This document shows positions 1,299 through 49,961 of a DNA stretch of 64,000 nt, one piece after another. The stretch spans positions 8,522-72,521 of the forward strand of contig JAZORN010000094.1 of NCBI GenBank assembly GCA_045656645.1, read 5' to 3'. The stretch comes from Clostridia bacterium (GTDB taxonomy: Bacteria; Bacillota; Clostridia; UMGS1883). A program made the position numbers and the translations under genes. Under the pieces are notes generated by a model. That model did not search any database, was not told where the DNA came from, and worked only from the letters and a program-made list of their open reading frames with translations. The stretch's first letter is position 1, and each line of letters opens with the position of its first letter.

Positions 1299-2246
1299 AT
1301 GGCTATAGGTGATAAGAAAGCAACCCGTGAAAGCTACGGTATGGCTCTTGCGGAGCTTGGTGAAAAATATGATATTGTTGTTATGGATGCTGACCTTTCC
1401 AAATCAACAAAGACAGATACTTTTAAAAAAAAATTTCCTGAAAGATTTATAAATACAGGTATTGCGGAGGGTAATATGCTCTCAACCGCTGCAGGTCTTG
1501 CAACAACGGGTAAGATTGTTTTTGCAAGCTCCTTTGCAATGTTTGCTGCAGGACGAGCTTTCGAGCAGATCCGTAACTCTATCGGTTATCCGCACCTTAA
1601 TGTAAAAATCGGTGCAACGCACGCAGGTATCAGCGTTGGTGAGGACGGTGCAACACATCAGTGCCTTGAGGATATGGGTATTATGCGTACTATTCCCGGA
1701 ATGGTAATTATCAATCCTGCAGACCACGTTGAGGCTATGGCGGCAGTTGAGGCTGCAGTTAAATACGAAGGACCTGTATATCTTCGTTTCGGCAGACTTC
1801 CCGTACCTCAGATTTATGATGAAAATACATACAAGTTTGAAATCGGTAAGGGTGTTCAGCTTGAAGAGGGTACAGATGCAACAATCGTTGCAACAGGTCT
1901 TATGGTGCCTTATGCTCTTGAGGCACGTCAGCTTCTTAAGGCAGAGGGTATTGATGCAGCAGTTGTAAACATTCATACAATTAAACCTATTGACAGAGAA
2001 ATCATTAAAAAGGCTGCCCAAAAGACAGGCGCAATCGTTACTGCAGAGGAGCATAATGTAAACTGCGGTCTTGGCAGTGCAGTTGCAGAGGTTCTTTGCG
2101 AGGAGTGCCCCGTTCCTATGCTCAGAGTAGGTACGCAGGACGTATTCGGTAAGAGCGGTAAGCCTTACGAGCTTCTTAAGGAATACGGACTTTCTGCAGA
2201 AAATATTGCAGAACAGGTTAAAAAAGCTATCAGTTTGAAAAAGTGA
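1299..2246 (+). CDS. Transketolase, C-terminal (pyrimidine-binding) subunit
   Basis: 315 aa, homologous to the C-terminal half of transketolase (FAMFAAGRAFEQIRNS, GATHAGISVGEDGATHQ). It is adjacent to the N-terminal subunit gene. Confidence 0.85.
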   Translation: MAIGDKKATRESYGMALAELGEKYDIVVMDADLSKSTKTDTFKKKFPERFINTGIAEGNMLSTAAGLATTGKIVFASSFAMFAAGRAFEQIRNSIGYPHLNVKIGATHAGISVGEDGATHQCLEDMGIMRTIPGMVIINPADHVEAMAAVEAAVKYEGPVYLRFGRLPVPQIYDENTYKFEIGKGVQLEEGTDATIVATGLMVPYALEARQLLKAEGIDAAVVNIHTIKPIDREIIKKAAQKTGAIVTAEEHNVNCGLGSAVAEVLCEECPVPMLRVGTQDVFGKSGKPYELLKEYGLSAENIAEQVKKAISLKK

Positions 2247-4448: not shown

Positions 4449-5189
4449 GTGTATAACGATTTTGCCTATTTATATGATGAACTGATTAATGATGTTGATT
4501 ACAAAAAATGGGTTGATTATTATTATAAGATTTTCAGCCGCTTCGGACATACCCCAAGGCTCGGTCTTGACCTCGGCTGCGGAACGGGTAATATGACAAC
4601 ACAGTTTGCAGCGAGAGGGGTAGATATGACAGGTGTTGACCTTTCTGAGGATATGCTCGCGGTAGCACGTGAAAAGTCGGAGGGTATGGACATACTCTAC
4701 CTTAATCAGGATATGCGCAGTTTTGAGCTTTACGGAACGGTTGATTTTATTATTTCAAGTCTTGACTGTATAAACTATATCACCGATAAAAGAGATTTGC
4801 TGAAGGTTTTTCGCCTTGTAAACAATTACCTTGACCCTGGCGGACTTTTTATATTCGATATTAATACCCGATGCAAATTAGAGAATATTCTGGGAAATAA
4901 TACATATATACTTGAAAATGATGATGTGTTCTGTTCGTGGCAGAACGAGTATGATAAGGTTCGCAGAATTTGTGATTTTTATCTGACGTTTTTCTGCAAA
5001 CAAGGAAACGTATACGAGCGCTTTGATGAACAGCACTCCGAAAGGGCATATGATATACCTGAAATAACTGCTCTTATTGAAAAAGCAGGGATGAGAGTTT
5101 TAAATGTATATGATAATCTAAGCTTTAATGCACCAAAGAAAAACAGTGAAAGAGTATTCTTTGTGGTGCAGGAACAGGGGAAACGATGA
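4449..5189 (+). CDS. Class I SAM-dependent methyltransferase
   Basis: SAM-binding motif LDLGCGTGNMT. The most likely start is GTG 4449, after RBS AAAAGGGTGA. The ORF could extend back to 4431. Confidence 0.7.
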   Translation: MYNDFAYLYDELINDVDYKKWVDYYYKIFSRFGHTPRLGLDLGCGTGNMTTQFAARGVDMTGVDLSEDMLAVAREKSEGMDILYLNQDMRSFELYGTVDFIISSLDCINYITDKRDLLKVFRLVNNYLDPGGLFIFDINTRCKLENILGNNTYILENDDVFCSWQNEYDKVRRICDFYLTFFCKQGNVYERFDEQHSERAYDIPEITALIEKAGMRVLNVYDNLSFNAPKKNSERVFFVVQEQGKR

Positions 5190-6424
5190 TGGTTGTAGTT
5201 ATAGGCGGCGGTGCGGCAGGACTGATGGCGGCAATTACTGCGGCACAAAACGGTGCCGATGTAACGGTAATTGAAAAAAATGCCGATGTTGGAAAAAAGA
5301 TTCTCATTACAGGTAAAGGCAGATGTAATGTGACAAATGCGTGTGTGACGCAGGAAATTTTTGAAAACATTCCCACAAACGCAAACTTTCTCTACAGTGC
5401 CATTTACGGCTTTACAAATTATGATGTAATGGATTTTTTTGAAAACTGCGGCGTACCACTCAAAACAGAGCGTGGAGAGCGTGTGTTTCCTCAAAGTGAC
5501 CGTGCAAGGGATATTGTAGATGCACTGAAAAGAAAGGCAAACGGGCTTGGTGTAAAAATAATTCGCGGACGCGCAGAAGAAATAATTACCAAGGGCGAAA
5601 AAATCAGCGGAGTTAAAACTGATGCACAGACCATTTTTGCTGACAAGGTCATTGTAGCCACGGGCGGAAAAAGCTATCCTAAAACAGGCTCAACGGGGGA
5701 CGGATATAAAATAGCTCAAAAAATAGGGCACAGTGTTACAAAGATAAAGCCTGCCCTTGTACCCGTTGAAACGATAGAGGATACGTCAGCACTTATGGGG
5801 CTTTCGCTGAGAAATGTCAGCGTAAGTGTATTTGATAAAAATAACCGTAAGCTGCACAGTGATTTTGGCGAAATGCTGTTTACGCATTTCGGTCTTACGG
5901 GCCCTCTTATTTTATCTTCAAGCAGCCATATGGGTGAAGCACCTGACGGGGTACGGATAGAAATAGATTTAAAGAGTGCACTTGACGAAGAAACCCTTGA
6001 TAAAAGAATTTTAAGAGATTTTGAAAAGTATAAGAACAGAAATTTTGAAAATGCACTCTCTGACCTTCTCCCGTCAAAAATGATTGGGTACATTATAGAG
6101 AGGTCGCAAATTGACCGTTTTAAAAAGGTTAATTCTATTACAAAGGAAGAAAGAAAACGGCTTTTATATACGTTAAAGCATCTTACCTTTACAGTCAAAG
6201 GTTACCGCAGTGTAGAAGAGGCTATTGTAACCTCGGGCGGGATTAATGTTAAAGAAATCAATGCCTCTACAATGGAAAGTAAGATAGTAAAAGGGCTTTA
6301 TTTTGCAGGTGAGGTAATTGACGTTGATGCATATACGGGCGGTTTTAATCTGCAGATAGCTTTTTCGACGGGCGCATTGGCAGGCGAAAAAGCTGCAAAG
6401 GAGGAAATGAAAGAAAATGACTAA
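5186..6424 (+). CDS. NAD(P)/FAD-dependent oxidoreductase (HI0933/YhiN-like flavoprotein)
   Basis: N-terminal dinucleotide-binding motif VVIGGGAAGLMAA. About 410 aa, consistent with the HI0933 family. Confidence 0.7.
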   Translation: MMVVVIGGGAAGLMAAITAAQNGADVTVIEKNADVGKKILITGKGRCNVTNACVTQEIFENIPTNANFLYSAIYGFTNYDVMDFFENCGVPLKTERGERVFPQSDRARDIVDALKRKANGLGVKIIRGRAEEIITKGEKISGVKTDAQTIFADKVIVATGGKSYPKTGSTGDGYKIAQKIGHSVTKIKPALVPVETIEDTSALMGLSLRNVSVSVFDKNNRKLHSDFGEMLFTHFGLTGPLILSSSSHMGEAPDGVRIEIDLKSALDEETLDKRILRDFEKYKNRNFENALSDLLPSKMIGYIIERSQIDRFKKVNSITKEERKRLLYTLKHLTFTVKGYRSVEEAIVTSGGINVKEINASTMESKIVKGLYFAGEVIDVDAYTGGFNLQIAFSTGALAGEKAAKEEMKEND

Positions 6425-9767: not shown

Positions 9768-11810
9768 TTACAAAGCTAAATTTTGGGATAAATTTTCACT
9801 TGCTTCTTTTATATAAAAGTTTTCTTCTTTTAAAAGATGCGGGTCTTCTTTTAAAAGTGCTTCTGCGGCAATGCCGCTCTTTTTAAGTACATCAAGGTCA
9901 TTTGCAAGGTCTGCAATTTTAAAGTGCAGAGCACCGTGCTGACGTGTGCCGAAAAAGTCGCCCGGACCACGAAGTGTTAAATCCTTTTCAGATATTTTAA
10001 AGCCGTCGTTACTTTTTGTCATTATTTGCATACGCTCTTTAATATCATCTGAAAAAGAGGAGCAAAAAAGTACACAATAGCTTTTACTGCTTCCACGTCC
10101 TACACGCCCCCGAAGCTGATGCAGCTGACTAAGTCCAAACCGTTCTGCGTTTTCTATTACCATCAATGTTGCCTCGGGTACATTTACGCCAACCTCTATA
10201 ACAGTAGTTGATACAAGGATTTTACTTTGTCCGCAGATAAAATCACTCATAGCCTTTTCCTTGTCCGCACTTTTCATTTTGCCGTGGACAAGCCCCATCG
10301 GTATATCTGGGAATATTTTTGAGGATAGGTGAGAAAAATGCTCCTCTACAGATTTAAGGGGAATATTTTCTGATTCCTCAACACTGGGGCATACAATATA
10401 ACAACGGTTATTTTTCATAACCTCTTTGCGGATAAATGCATATATACGCTCGCGCATATTTTCGCCCACACAGTAGGTATCAATTACCTGTCTTCCCGGC
10501 GGAAGCTCCCCGATAACTGAAATATCCATATCTCCGTATATAATAAGTGCAAGAGTTCTTGGAATAGGTGTGGCAGTCATTACAAGGGTATGTACATCAT
10601 TGCCCTTTTCACTAAGTGCCATTCTCTGCCTTACGCCAAAACGGTGCTGTTCATCCGTTATTGCAAGGGCAAGACGCATAAAACTAACCTTTTGTGTGAT
10701 AAGTGCGTGCGTGCCGAAAAGTGCATCTATTTCGCCGCACTTAAGCTTTTCATATATTTCGCGTTTTGTTTTTTGCGATGTGCTTCCCGTAAGGAGTGCG
10801 CATTTAATTCCCAAATTCTCAAGCATAGGGGAGAGGTCATTATAATGCTGACGTGCCAGTACTTCTGTAGGAGCCATCATTGCCGCCTGATTGCCGTTTT
10901 TGACGCAGACATATATTGAAATAGCGGCTATTACTGTTTTACCGCTTCCGACGTCGCCCTGAACAAGTCTGTTCATAACAGTGCCTGAGGACAGGTCAGA
11001 AAGTATCTCATCCGTAACCTTTTTTTGCGCATTTGTGAGGGTAAAGGGAAGGGAGGAGAGAAATGGTGTAATATTTTTATCGGTAAATTTTATACCATTC
11101 TTTTTTTCGGCAGATATTTTCATTTTCCGCAGTGTTGTCTGCAGAATGAAAAATTCCTCAAACACAAGCCTCTTTTTTGCTATTTCAAGAGAATTTAAGT
11201 CAGCAGGAAAATGTATGTTCTTAATTGCAAATTCAAGTGGGCATAACGAGTATGTGCGAAGCACAGAAGGCGGAATTATATCACGCATATAGCTGTGATA
11301 CAGGCGGTAGCTCTCCATAATTAAATTACGCATAAATTTTTGCGAAATACCGCTCGTAAGGGGATATATGGGAACTATACATTTAGTACATTCTTTTTTT
11401 GATGAAAGCTCAAATTCAGGGGAAAGTATTTCCTTGTTTTTACCCCTGATATTAACCTTTCCGTAGAAAGAATATTCATAGCCAACCTTAAAATTGTTTT
11501 TTATGTATTTGTTATTAAAGAATATGCACGTTGCAATTCCCGTATCGTCACGCACCAAAAGCTTGTAGTAGGTAAGCCCTTTACGTACAAAATGCTCCGT
11601 CACGGGTGAAACTACAATTGCATTAACGCAGTGATAATTTCCGTTTTCAATATCAAAAATTTTAGAAACCTTTGTTCTGTCCTCAAAACGCACGGGAAAA
11701 TGTGTTAATAAGTCCCAAACGGTAAAAACGCCAAGGCGAAGCAATTGCTTCGCCTTGGCGTCGCCTATTCCTTTAAGTGACCTGATATCAGTTTCCATAG
11801 GGTTTAACAC
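9768..11810 (-). CDS. recG: ATP-dependent DNA helicase RecG
   Basis: 680 aa. Walker A GDVGSGKT and a DEQHRFG motif II, with a wedge-like N-terminus. Confidence 0.85.
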   Translation of the reverse strand: MLNPMETDIRSLKGIGDAKAKQLLRLGVFTVWDLLTHFPVRFEDRTKVSKIFDIENGNYHCVNAIVVSPVTEHFVRKGLTYYKLLVRDDTGIATCIFFNNKYIKNNFKVGYEYSFYGKVNIRGKNKEILSPEFELSSKKECTKCIVPIYPLTSGISQKFMRNLIMESYRLYHSYMRDIIPPSVLRTYSLCPLEFAIKNIHFPADLNSLEIAKKRLVFEEFFILQTTLRKMKISAEKKNGIKFTDKNITPFLSSLPFTLTNAQKKVTDEILSDLSSGTVMNRLVQGDVGSGKTVIAAISIYVCVKNGNQAAMMAPTEVLARQHYNDLSPMLENLGIKCALLTGSTSQKTKREIYEKLKCGEIDALFGTHALITQKVSFMRLALAITDEQHRFGVRQRMALSEKGNDVHTLVMTATPIPRTLALIIYGDMDISVIGELPPGRQVIDTYCVGENMRERIYAFIRKEVMKNNRCYIVCPSVEESENIPLKSVEEHFSHLSSKIFPDIPMGLVHGKMKSADKEKAMSDFICGQSKILVSTTVIEVGVNVPEATLMVIENAERFGLSQLHQLRGRVGRGSSKSYCVLFCSSFSDDIKERMQIMTKSNDGFKISEKDLTLRGPGDFFGTRQHGALHFKIADLANDLDVLKKSGIAAEALLKEDPHLLKEENFYIKEASENLSQNLAL

Positions 11811-45983: not shown

Positions 45984-46715
45984 ATGGAAATCAGAATTTG
46001 TAAAAACAGCGAGGAGCTTGGTAAAAGCGCCGCAAAACATGTTGCAGAGGTTCTCAAAAACTGCATAGCTGAAAAAGGAAGTGCAAGAATCGTACTTTCA
46101 ACAGGCGCATCTCAGTTTGATACAATCAAGGCACTTGTAGAAGAAAAGGGTATTAAGTGGGATTGTGTTGAAATGTTCCACCTTGACGAGTACGTTGACC
46201 TTCCCATCACACACGGTGCAAGCTTCAGAAAATATCTTCAGGAGCGTTTTGTTGACAAGGTAGGTGCTCTTAAAGCCGTTCATTTTGTAGACGGAACAAA
46301 GGAATGCATTTCAAAGCTTACAGAAGAAATCAGAAAAGAACCTATTGATATTGGTCTTATCGGTATTGGCGAAAATGGACACATTGCATTTAATGACCCG
46401 CCGGCAGATTTTGACACAAAGGAAGCATATATCATTGTAAACCTTGACGAGCGTTGCAAAAAGCAGCAGATGGGAGAGGGTTGGTTTGCAACAATTGACG
46501 ATGTTCCTAAGCAGGCAGTATCTATGACAACATATCAGATTATGCAGTGTAAGAGAATTGTTTCCTGCGTACCCTACGCAGTTAAGGCGGAAGCCGTTGA
46601 AAATACAATCAAGGCAGATAAAACAACAAATATGGTTCCCGCAACACTTCTTAAGGAGCATAATGATTTTATTCTTTATCTTGATGAAGACAGCGCAGCA
46701 GGAATACTTAAATAA
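45984..46715 (+). CDS. nagB: Glucosamine-6-phosphate deaminase
   Basis: Short-form NagB of about 243 aa (MEIRICKNSEELG...). Start at ATG 45984. Confidence 0.8.
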   Translation: MEIRICKNSEELGKSAAKHVAEVLKNCIAEKGSARIVLSTGASQFDTIKALVEEKGIKWDCVEMFHLDEYVDLPITHGASFRKYLQERFVDKVGALKAVHFVDGTKECISKLTEEIRKEPIDIGLIGIGENGHIAFNDPPADFDTKEAYIIVNLDERCKKQQMGEGWFATIDDVPKQAVSMTTYQIMQCKRIVSCVPYAVKAEAVENTIKADKTTNMVPATLLKEHNDFILYLDEDSAAGILK

Positions 46716-46732
46716 AATTTTTGTTCATCGTA

Positions 46733-46771
46733 AAAAACAGATACGAACCAAAGAGTTCGTATCTGTTTTTT
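46733..46771 (+). terminator. Rho-independent terminator of nagB (AAAAACAGATACGAAC-caaaga-GTTCGTATCTGTTTTTT)
   Basis: 16-bp perfect stem followed by a T-run. Confidence 0.8.
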
Positions 46772-46773
46772 AG

Positions 46774-46992
46774 TGGTGGAGGCGAGGGGAGACGGATGCT
46801 CAGCATCCTACCTGCTTGACGACCGAAAGCAAAGCTTTCGGTACCCGTCTGCGCACCAACTTCGCTGAAAATGATTATCAATCATTTTCTTACGCTCGTT
46901 GCCCTCATAGGGTTCAACTCCCTAATAAAGCAGTAAAAAAGGAACATACCTTGTGGTACATTCCTTTTTTATTATGGTGGAGGCGAGGGGAG
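46774..46992. repeat. Exact 18-bp direct repeat TGGTGGAGGCGAGGGGAG (46774-46791 and 46975-46992); the second copy is the 3' end of ssrA
   Basis: The two copies are 201 bp apart. Three perfect hairpins (46794-46808, 46823-46841, 46867-46889) and a T-arm-like GGGTTCAACTCCC lie between them. Confidence 0.6.
46935..46970 (-). terminator. Terminator hairpin of ssrA (minus strand: GGAAUGUACC-acaa-GGUAUGUUCC followed by UUUUUU)
   Basis: 10-bp stem with two G-U pairs, immediately 3' of the tmRNA CCA end. Confidence 0.6.
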
Positions 46993-47321
46993 TTGAACCC
47001 CTGTCCGAAAACATATTCACACAGGCATCTCCGAGCGCAGTCACTTATTTAACATTCCCTCCGCCGCAAGGCAAGTGACAGCCCATACGGTTTTAGTAGC
47101 TTCATTTGTCATGCATAGCGCAAAGCTTAACTATGTCACGTTCACCACTGCGTGACGCTCTTATCCGAGCCGTGGTCCTCCCGGTAAGAACGGCCGCCTA
47201 ATTAGGCAGCGTAAGCTAAATTATTGTTAGCGTTTAAATTTAAAATTCGGGATTTTAACGCAGTTCCCGCTGCGGCTCGCTTCCCATGCTTCAACATCCC
47301 CGTCGAAGCCGGTACGCCCCC
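46975..47321 (-). ncRNA. ssrA: tmRNA (transfer-messenger RNA, SsrA)
   Basis: The minus strand reads 5'-GGGGGCGUACCGGCUUCGACGGGGAU...GGACAGGGGUUCAACUCCCCUCGCCUCCACCA-3'. It has a tRNA-like acceptor and T-arm. The internal ORF GCU AAC AAU AAU UUA GCU UAC GCU GCC UAA encodes the tag ANNNLAYAA. smpB lies immediately upstream. Confidence 0.9.
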
Positions 47322-47413
47322 ATATAATGATGCTACACCTTTGCAGCATCATATAGTATACATTAGGAAATATTAAATTGTCAACAGTTAATTACTGGTT
47401 TTGAGCCTTAAGC

Positions 47414-47881
47414 TTATTGATTTTGAGTCTTGAGCGTTCTTTCAATCATTCTTCCGGCATCTCTTTTTGCGGCATCATCACGCTTATCATAAAGTTTTTT
47501 ACCACGTGCTACCGCGATAGTCATTTTTACCCTTTGTCCTTTGAGATAAATATCGAGAGGGATAAGTGTAAGCCCTTTTTGCTTTACAGTACCCAAAAGC
47601 TTCATTATTTCACGTTTGTGCATTAAAAGCCTCTTTGGTCTTAACGGCTCTCTGTTAAAGATATTACCCTTTTCATACGGTGAAATATGCATACCGTGTA
47701 CAAACATTTCGCCCTTATCAATTTCGCAATAGCTTTCCTTGAGGTTAACCTTTCCCATACGGATTGATTTAACCTCTGTTCCAAAAAGCTCAATGCCTGC
47801 TTCGTACTTTTCTTCTATGAAGAACTCGTGTGTTGCGCTTCTGTTTTGAGCGAGAAGCTTTCTCTTTTCGTTTTCTGCCAT
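47414..47881 (-). CDS. smpB: SsrA-binding protein SmpB
   Basis: About 155 aa. Conserved [15 protein letters not shown] block near the N-terminus. Its start overlaps the rnr 3' end by roughly 90 nt. Confidence 0.85.
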
Positions 47882-49961
47882 TATCAGTTCCCCCTTCAAG
47901 GAGTAAAAAATCTATTCTGCGTGAAACCTTGCTTGCAGAGGCAAGCTTTACTTTGACAACATCACCTATGGTAAAGGTGTGTCCTGTGCGTTCACCGTAA
48001 AGTGACAAGGTTTTTTCATCAAAAACATAATAATCATCACGAAGTGTTTCAAGCCTTACAAGACCTTCAACAGTGTTGGGAAGCATCACAAAGAAACCAA
48101 AACCCGTTACCGATGAGATGACACCCTCAAATTCCTGACCGATAAAGCTTTCCATATATTCAGCCTTTTTGATGTCAAGTGTATCCCGCTCACACATTGA
48201 GGCGGCGTTTTCTCTTTCACTGCACTGCACTGATGCCTCGTTAACAAAGGCACTAAGATACGATTTTGTTTTTTTGTCATTTTCTATTGATGCCTTTAAT
48301 GCTCTGTGACAAACAAGGTCAGGATAGCGGCGTATAGGGGAGGTGAAGTGACAATAATTATCAAGCATCAATCCAAAATGACCGTCGTTTTTACTGTCAT
48401 ACTTAGCCTTTGCCATACTTCTGAGTAACATTGTTGAAAATGCCGCTTCCTGCGGAGTATCCGAAACCTCTTTCATAAGTGCCTGTAGGCTTCTGCAATG
48501 CTCATAACCTTTATTATATATGAAGTTGAGTGTGTTTTCAAGCTTTTCTTTATTCGGTTCATCGTGTACTCTGTAAATTGCGCCAATATTATTCTCCCAC
48601 AAATACTTGGCAACAGCACTGTTTGCTGCAACCATAAATTCCTCAATTATTTTATTTGCAAAGGAATTTTCACGCTTTACAATATCTATTGTTTTTCCGT
48701 CCTTGTCAAAAACCGCCTTTGCCTCGGGAATGTTAAAATCAATAGTACCACGCTCACTTGTTTTTTGTGTAAGAAGCAAATAAAGCTCATACATAGCATC
48801 AAGCACAGGGCGGAGATGCGAATACTTTTCACACAATAGGGGAGGTTTTTTACTTATCAAAAGGCGCACGTTTTCATAAGTCATTCGTGCCGTACTCTTT
48901 ATATAAGATTTATGAAAAGTTGTTTTTATAACATTACCATTAGTGTCATAATGAAGAAATACTGACATAGTAAGTCTTAATACACCCTCATTAAGTGAGC
49001 ATATTCCGTTTGAAAGCCTTACGGGTAGCATAGGTATTACTCTGTCTGCAAGATAAACGCTTGTACCTCTTGCATAAGCTTCCTTATCAAGCGGAGAATT
49101 TGGTTTTACATAGTGACTTACATCGGCAATATGAACGCCTAAGATATAACCGTTTTCAGTCTTTTCCACAGATATTGCATCGTCTATATCCTTTGTATCC
49201 TCTCCGTCAATTGTAATTATGGTTTCAGACGTAAGGTTAAGTCTGCCTGATAAATCTTCATCCTCTATTTTATCTACTCTCTGCGCCTCCTGGATCACAT
49301 CAGACGGAAATTCGAGCGAAAAGTCATAACCTTTTATTACAGACAAAACGTCAACACCAAAATCATACGGAAAGCCAAGAATTTCTGTAATACGGCAACA
49401 AAGGGAAGTGGTAGGTGTTTCGTATTCAATAATTTTTGCAACAACCTTTTGTCCGTTAAGCGCACCGTTTATATCACGGGATGAAACGAAAATTTCATCA
49501 GGCAGTTTATCGTTATCAGGTGTAATTATTCCATATCCACGCTCTTGTGTAAAAACACCTACAATTGTACTGTTTGCACGTGATAAAATACTGATAATTC
49601 TTCCTTCGCGGTTTTTATCTGCAGATGATTTTTTTTCAGTTTTTACAAGCACAGTGTCGCCGTTTAATGCACCGTTTACGTATTCTGATGCTATATGAAT
49701 GTCGCCTTTATCATCTGACACAAAGCCAAAACCTTTTGTAGTTGAACGAAAAATTGCTTTTACAAGTCCCATAGACTTTGCGCTGAAGCATCGCTTTTTC
49801 CTGCCGACAATTATTTCGCCCTCTTTTTCAAGCTCGTCTATAATATTATTAAACTCATCAATATCAGACGCAGGAACACATAAAAGCACTGCTATATTTT
49901 CCTTAGTCATAGGAGCATATTCGCTACTGTTTATAAAATCACATATTTTTTGTTTACGCAA
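47790..49961 (-). CDS. rnr: Ribonuclease R
   Basis: 723 aa. RNB catalytic domain, cold-shock and S1 domains, and a basic Lys/Arg-rich C-terminal tail. TTG start after RBS AAGGTGA. Confidence 0.85.

Follow-up and report, generated by a model that had tools for sequence, protein, structure and literature searches.

In Escherichia coli, 178-bp repeats (rttR; Rfam RF00391) are located distal to the tyrV/tyrT genes. Passages of the literature citing Bosl and Kersten 1991 (bioRxiv 10.1101/2024.07.17.603846; PMC3318445) describe the RtT RNA as a product that is released during processing of the tyrT transcript and perhaps modulates the stringent response. The repeats of the reference sequence used here (NC_000913.3, 1286700–1287500; termed L279) all contain GGGGAAGGATGAGAAGCTTCGA, which matches the tRNA-Tyr T-arm region in inverted orientation over 22 nt with 86% identity, and they end in AATCCTTCCCCCACCACCA, which duplicates the last 19 nt of the tRNA with CCA. 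In the Rfam RtT consensus, these inverted-copy and tail segments are joined in a closing helix, and ccaCCACCA is left free. Two groups of mobile elements are also relevant for comparison. The tmRNA gene, ssrA, is a known integration hotspot, and ssrA islands have been described in Dehalococcoides (PMC3146451). The concept of a guide RNA is known from RNA-guided mobile elements, namely the bridge RNA or seekRNA of IS110/IS1111 (PMC11208160).

Here, we analyzed a 64-kb stretch of DNA from a Clostridia bacterium (hereafter, the window), in which the 3' end of the tmRNA gene occurs a second time behind the gene. The second copy is probably the tail of a conserved 150-nt structured element and not the scar of an island. 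What appears to be an att scar would thereby become a member of a conserved structured RNA class that is not in Rfam 15.

Organization of the ssrA–nagB intergenic region

The 18-nt sequence TGGTGGAGGCGAGGGGAG was found exactly twice in the window, at 46774–46791 and 46975–46992, as a sequence-only reading of this DNA had pointed out. It had no match in 100 dinucleotide shuffles of the window, even when three mismatches were allowed. The copy at 46975–46992 is the 3' end of ssrA (46975–47321, minus strand), which was identified by ARAGORN and by the Rfam tmRNA model (RF00023, 161.6 bits), encodes the tag ANNNLAYAA, and ends in CTCCCCTCGCCTCCACCA (last 18 nt, RNA sense). The other copy lies directly behind the terminator of nagB, a perfect 18-bp hairpin at 46731–46772. 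nagB itself (45984–46715, plus strand; glucosamine-6-phosphate deaminase, Pfam PF01182) is convergent with ssrA, and its exact 243-aa product is on record. Upstream of ssrA and on the same strand are smpB (47414–47881; Pfam SmpB) and rnr, encoding RNase R (47790–49961; Pfam RNB). The order on the tmRNA strand is therefore rnr, smpB, ssrA, a terminator (46971 to 46934), a 150-nt block (46923 to 46774), the nagB terminator, and the convergent nagB.

The interval between the two copies, in which no gene was found in agreement with the sequence-only reading, opens with the terminator of the tmRNA gene. This intrinsic terminator (46934–46971), a bidirectional hairpin with A and T runs, was recognized by a terminator scan and by alignment with a related species, L125. 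The three hairpins described earlier for the interval were present at 46794–46808, 46822–46842, and 46867–46889. A T-arm-like 13-mer, GGGTTCAACTCCC, was likewise found at 46910–46922 on the forward strand. This 13-mer is a perfect inverted copy (13 of 13 positions) of the tmRNA T-arm at 46988–47000, which reads GGGTTCAACTCCC in RNA sense, and it is placed on the strand opposite to the tmRNA, an orientation that had been missed. On the tmRNA strand, the segment at 46910–46922 accordingly reads GGGAGTTGAACCC, the reverse complement of the T-arm, and is termed the anti-T-arm. The complete element, delimited by the covariance model R1 and by the structure of alignment A3, occupies 46774–46923 on the minus strand and extends from the anti-T-arm to the 18-nt tail.

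A family of elements behind tmRNA and tRNA genes

Retrieval anchored on SmpB yielded 80 loci from related gut Clostridia genomes, and a tmRNA was called by ARAGORN in 44 of them. Six of these 44 loci carried a copy of their own tmRNA 3' end 158–692 nt downstream, though the 3' ends vary between species. Five of the six copies were exact, and that of L143 had two mismatches. Each copy was preceded by the reverse complement of the T-arm of the same genome, with a match of 17/17 in L192. The conserved internal motif GGTGCGCAGnCnGGTACCGAA was then used as a search pattern, which added copies from one viral contig and from metagenomes; the core motif GGTGCGCAG also served as a pattern. Eleven of the 18 metagenome pattern matches were rejected as chance matches in high-GC coding DNA.

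By the motif search and model R1, nine full and two partial members were identified with scores of 78–159 bits, in addition to the distant L143. The sample is small, and seven of the 12 members came from one metagenome project. The element of the window scored 140.1 bits over model positions 1–155 (E = 1.3e-37). The family occurs in gut Clostridia, and the element is placed immediately behind its partner gene on the same strand. The partners included tmRNA, tRNA-Leu(CAG) twice, and tRNA-Lys(CTT). The full members share a common plan, in which a 5' anti-T-arm is followed by a multi-hairpin core and by a 3' copy of the 3' end of the neighboring gene. The core contains the conserved motifs GAGAGGGC, GGTGCGCAG, GGTACCGAA, and CAAGCAG.

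Both ends of the element follow the neighboring gene closely. The tail copy was exactly 18 nt long, corresponding to tRNA positions 59–76, in six of the nine full loci, and the anti-T-arm was an 11–15-nt reverse complement of the local T-arm in seven of nine, in which the variable bases of the T-loop were also tracked. The gap between the gene end and the element was 45–55 nt in seven of nine loci, including 51 nt in the window. In the tRNA-linked copies, the inverted T-arm and the tail both matched the local tRNA gene. The cores gave a different grouping. The core of the window, which is linked to tmRNA, was 70% identical to that of L209 (tRNA-Leu), but 55–57% identical to those of the tmRNA-linked L135 and L148. 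The tmRNA-linked L204 was nearest to L208 (tRNA-Lys) with 74% identity, and the two tRNA-Leu(CAG) copies shared just 53%. These comparisons showed that core similarity is not tied to the partnered gene and that the target gene was switched repeatedly.

Additional tandem or partial units were present in L211, L222, and L218. The truncated extra unit of L218 (767–858) consists of only an anti-T-arm, GAGAGxGC, and a terminator-like hairpin. Trailers that are not homologous to this family, yet follow an equal logic at their ends, were located behind the tmRNA gene in L171, L172, and L192. In L208, a second, non-homologous small element (1530–1700, minus strand) was observed between the tRNA-Lys gene and the family member. 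A partial anti-T-arm (CAGGGACTC) and a tail copy (CTGATGGTGCACCA) belong to this element as well. Trailers of this kind can stack.

Fold and strand of the element

Alignment A3 contains the nine full copies in 166 columns. RNAalifold proposed 42 base pairs for this alignment, of which 19 were accompanied by compensatory double changes. In the pair counting, 94.9% of the paired cells were complementary versus 42–48% in slid controls, and the number of double-change cells was 61 versus 8–19. In 500 shuffles, the observed value was never reached for four of the five measures and was reached four times for the fifth.

The closing helix, P1 (helix 1), was paired in 97.8% of the cells, and its column pair 6/149 covaries among CG, GC, and AU. 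In the window, P1 is formed between GGGAG (46922 to 46918), the first five bases of the anti-T-arm, and CTCCC (46791 to 46787) of the tail. The rest of the tail (46774–46791), i.e., the acceptor 3' strand and ACCA, is predicted to be left single-stranded outside P1. Inside P1, a covarying stem P2 pairs CAAC (46900 to 46897) with GTTG (46861 to 46858) and encloses the variable hairpin GAAAATGATT/AATCATTTTC at 46867–46889, which consists of an A-run, a stem, and a T-run; this part of the fold comprises helices 3 and 5. P2 is followed by the core motif GGTGCGCAG (RNA sense, 46849–46857), which was invariant in all nine aligned sequences, and by the stem GACG/CGTC (46818–46849). This stem surrounds the hairpin ACCGAAAGC-TTT-GCTTTCGGT (46822–46842) and covaries with GTCC/GGAC of the relatives; helices 7 and 8 belong to this region. 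The small hairpin before the tail, GGATGC-TGA-GCATCC (46794–46808; GGATGC-tca-GCATCC on the forward strand), corresponds to helix 9 with the consensus TGC-GNA-GCA. Most of the consensus helices were reproduced by the minimum-energy fold of the window copy alone. As a separate observation, the variable hairpin of the window and its equivalents in the relatives resemble an intrinsic terminator.

G-U pairs occurred in 12 cells and A-C combinations in three, and this excess favors an RNA on the tmRNA strand. The data favor a folded RNA unit, although folded single-stranded DNA would also give such covariation. An opposite-strand tRNA-like gene or primer-binding site was rejected, because ARAGORN found none and the balance of G-U and A-C points to the tmRNA strand. 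Scans of the window region and the relatives against Rfam assigned no family to the element, and no bridge-RNA or guide family was matched either. A group I intron and the known small ribozymes were rejected as candidates, since no Rfam match was obtained, the core is about 110 nt long, and the junction has no conserved terminal G or U-G pair.

Comparison with RtT of E. coli

The element of the window resembles RtT in five respects. First, RtT directly follows a tRNA gene and shares its strand, as the present element does behind the tmRNA gene. Second, the units of both end in a copy of the gene 3' end with CCA, which is 19 nt in RtT and 18 nt in the window. Third, the closing helix is made by the 5' part of the unit, which complements the tail and the T-arm, and the CCA end is single-stranded. 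Fourth, tandem units are possible, as in L211 and L222. Fifth, the sizes are similar, i.e., 130–171 nt versus 150 nt in the window. In contrast, no sequence homology was detectable. RF00391 gave no match in the window at 46500–47500 (E ≤ 10) or in L209, L211, L218, and L222 (E ≤ 0.1). Conversely, model R1 aligned in register with all four RtT repeats, but with only 12–13 bits, and this score comes partly from the shared CCACCA. The two also differ in host and target: RtT is found in enterobacteria behind tRNA-Tyr only, whereas the present family occurs in another phylum, in gut Clostridia, behind tmRNA and several tRNAs. In addition, the closing helix of RtT has about 8 bp (7+1 in the Rfam consensus) versus 5 bp, and the window copy is single. 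These results showed that the architecture is shared with RtT. The resemblance may reflect common ancestry or convergence.

Flanking terminators and mobile genes

The element was missing from the closest species, L124 and L125. The tmRNA terminator of the window aligned with that of L125, with compensatory changes in the stem, and is an ortholog of the terminator native to that species, which lacks the element. On the other side, an exact look-up of NagB retrieved only three short contigs, L001–L003, and these encode an identical NagB, share the nagB terminator, and lack the element. Since both flanking terminators are native, the block was added between them. An island arriving with a 3' end and a terminator of its own would have left a different arrangement, and no such pair is present.

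Integrases, which the sequence-only reading had proposed to look for, were not found nearby. The neighbors of the element in the window are housekeeping genes, and no integrase or transposase was found near the element in the window, L135, L148, or L209. BLAST searches of phage and plasmid collections did not find the element, and none of the viral loci from a first scan with the 18-mer contained its interior. In IMG/VR, the core motifs were found in only one contig, L204, where the element is located on the host side of a prophage junction. The large serine recombinase of L204 was tried as a partner of the element and rejected. Its relatives show that the phage att site is centered on CTCCACCA, and an identical integrase is present in L224 without the element, which places the L204 element on the host side.

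Proposed reading of the element

On balance, we favor the reading that the element is an RtT-like trailer RNA, a 150-nt structured non-coding RNA running from 46923 to 46774 on the minus strand. This reading was adopted because the element shares its logic with the tyrT-distal repeats of E. coli; "RtT-like" designates an architecture, not a mechanism. We demonstrated a family with a common fold, ends matched to the neighboring gene, a location on the host side, and repeated switching of the target. How such an element would work can be outlined as follows. Its transcript would come from the tmRNA strand and would most likely arise when transcription of ssrA reads through the tmRNA terminator, because no sigma-70-like promoter was found upstream of the element; the tmRNA terminator itself has the appearance of a strong one. 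On the minus strand, the nagB terminator can serve the trailer element as well. With a tRNA-like tail followed by a terminator, the transcript may be trimmed in the same way as the 3' end of the tmRNA itself is matured. The anti-T-arm could pair with the T-arm of the neighboring RNA or gene, and the matched ends may be copied from the adjacent gene as the element spreads or is homogenized.

The RtT design is therefore no enterobacterial curiosity. Its combination of an inverted copy of the T-arm, a folded core, and a copy of a tRNA 3' end recurs behind tmRNA and several tRNA genes of a phylum distant from that of E. coli, where the two ends are fitted anew to the respective host gene. The regularity of the ends offers a testable handle on the role of tRNA-trailer RNAs, a question that dates from 1981–1991. 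It also opens up the possibility that T-arms are recognized in a target-programmed manner. For annotation, duplicated 3' ends of tRNA or tmRNA genes should not automatically be taken as island boundaries.

Alternative explanations

The alternative that survives best, although we regard it as rather unlikely, is a miniature homing element with its own guide. The anti-T-arm and the tail would complement the two strands of the T-arm/3'-end region and direct insertion behind the gene, the enzyme (a recombinase, transposase, or reverse transcriptase) would be encoded elsewhere, and the core would be a scaffold for protein binding. Such an element would account for the recurrence of one core behind different genes, in each case with its two ends fitted to the gene in question, for its presence in the window and absence from the closest species, and for the near-fixed distance from the recognized sequence. 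The tandem and partial extra units and the difference at this locus among strains with identical NagB also fit. Furthermore, the anti-T-arm is contiguous across position 58|59, where the tail copy begins, like an internal guide. The two segments divide the strands of a single 26-nt region between them, the anti-T-arm being complementary to the top strand and the tail to the bottom strand. However, no gene for a partner protein was seen beside the copies, and the sole adjacent recombinase, found in L204, is the integrase of a phage, acts at the tmRNA 3' end, and also occurs where the element does not. The copies have no terminal inverted repeats and no target-site duplication besides the tail, and the bridge-RNA and other guide families of Rfam gave no match.

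The element can also be compared with the bridge RNA or seekRNA of IS110/IS1111 and with the internal guides of group I introns. In common with these, it is a structured RNA of about 150–180 nt, with variable segments that may complement both strands or sides of a specific target, a conserved scaffold, and re-programmed targets. Nevertheless, no ORF for a DEDD (RuvC-like) recombinase was found in the several kb around the element in the window, L135, L148, or L209, a donor-binding counterpart is missing and no donor loop was identifiable, and Rfam gave no match. The core is also smaller than a group I ribozyme would require, and what is shared with the guide RNAs of mobile elements is logic only. 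A more general version, which is speculative and in our estimate has a low chance of being correct, would regard the whole family as re-programmable, guide-bearing RNAs that home to, or act on, tRNA-type genes. The anti-T-arm and the copy of positions 59–76 would specify the T-loop junction. The purpose would be an insertion that the RNA guides and an unlinked enzyme carries out, or else a splinted repair or processing of the neighboring RNA, and E. coli RtT would be a long-overlooked member of this functional class.

The sequence-only reading had offered three origins for the interval, i.e., what is left of a lost island, a miniature element, or a small structured RNA. The last two held up, as the interval contains a conserved covarying unit that occupies the same position behind other tRNA and tmRNA genes. 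In contrast, the first, a residual att site, is improbable and was not supported. According to it, an island with a tyrosine integrase entered the T-loop of ssrA, the 3' end was duplicated as attL and attR, and deletion of the island left about 180 bp. Its premise is sound, as integration into the 3' ends of tmRNA genes does occur: over 120 viral contigs of IMG/VR contain the 18-mer, frequently at the end of the contig, L014 has it at either end, and the viral contigs L079 and L049 carry the T-arm and tail of the window tmRNA. A direct repeat of the ssrA 3' end bounds the element and begins within the T-loop, like att sites of the T-loop type and like the repeats of integrative elements that target ssrA or tRNA genes, and the DNA downstream of tmRNA varies between species. 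Unlike those elements, however, the window contains no integrase, cargo, or terminator supplied by the element. The terminator behind the first copy is native, and the distal one is that of nagB. Between the two copies lies a conserved unit that folds like an RNA and contains the inverted T-arm copy, which an att remnant leaves unexplained. All members share a left boundary and a core with compensatory changes of the RNA type, and the arm sites of an integrase would not give these. No integrase was attached at any locus of the family, and the interior was without a match in the phage and plasmid collections, the one IMG/VR contig with the core motifs carrying them on its host side.

Finally, a splint or spare-part RNA is very improbable. 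Here, the anti-T-arm would align a tmRNA or tRNA broken in the T-loop with the 59–76 copy of the element for re-ligation, or would pair with read-through precursors to direct their processing. This idea is purely geometric (a guide complementary across 58|59, a tail starting exactly at 59, and an element that in every case follows its target in cis), neither a ribozyme or ligase signature nor an Rfam match was found, and we know of no experimental precedent for such an RNA in bacteria.

Other sequences associated with ssrA and nagB

Several sequences separate from the trailer element were observed around ssrA. The recombinase of L204 (5151–6719) belongs, with L223–L278, to a family of phage large serine recombinases that integrate at the very 3' end of the tmRNA gene. 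The free-phage form has the palindromic site GTGTTCGGATTTGAGCGGTCAAGCTCCACCATTGAAGGATAATCCGAACAC, and the integrated forms have a sequence ending in CTCCACCA, followed by a host terminator. A 29-nt exact copy of the T-arm and 3' end of the window tmRNA, CAGGGGTTCAACTCCCCTCGCCTCCACCA, was present in the viral contigs L079 (5056–5085) and L049 (about 1434–1462). It is a classical att core of a phage able to target ssrA of this host, and these copies and the viral contigs with the 18-mer are elements separate from the trailer. The 25 nt just upstream of the copy in L079 and L049 resemble L001 2264–2288, which lies beside the nagB terminator. L014, a 5.2-kb IMG/VR contig with the 18-mer at 74–91 and 5109–5126, may be a small ssrA-integrated satellite or islet.

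The contigs that encode the identical NagB diverge right behind the nagB terminator, at the boundary corresponding to position 46773 of the window. L001 (2219–2405) and L002 continue into unrelated DNA, and L003 (1547–1607) has a hairpin behind which only CTCCACCA follows. The region behind the nagB terminator is polymorphic between very close strains. ORFs of the 23S rRNA intervening-sequence type (four-helix bundle, PF05635) were located directly behind the tmRNA gene in L171 (about 11030–11390) and L124 (about 11110 onward); the assignment was based on a Pfam match for L171 and on sequence reading for L124. In L171, this ORF is preceded by the tmRNA terminator and followed by a trailer that has an anti-T-arm and a tail copy of its own. 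L172 gave a sub-threshold match to Gut-1 RNA (RF01706) at 5529–5617 (minus strand), immediately upstream of its tmRNA gene, with 40.5 bits against a gathering score of 50.
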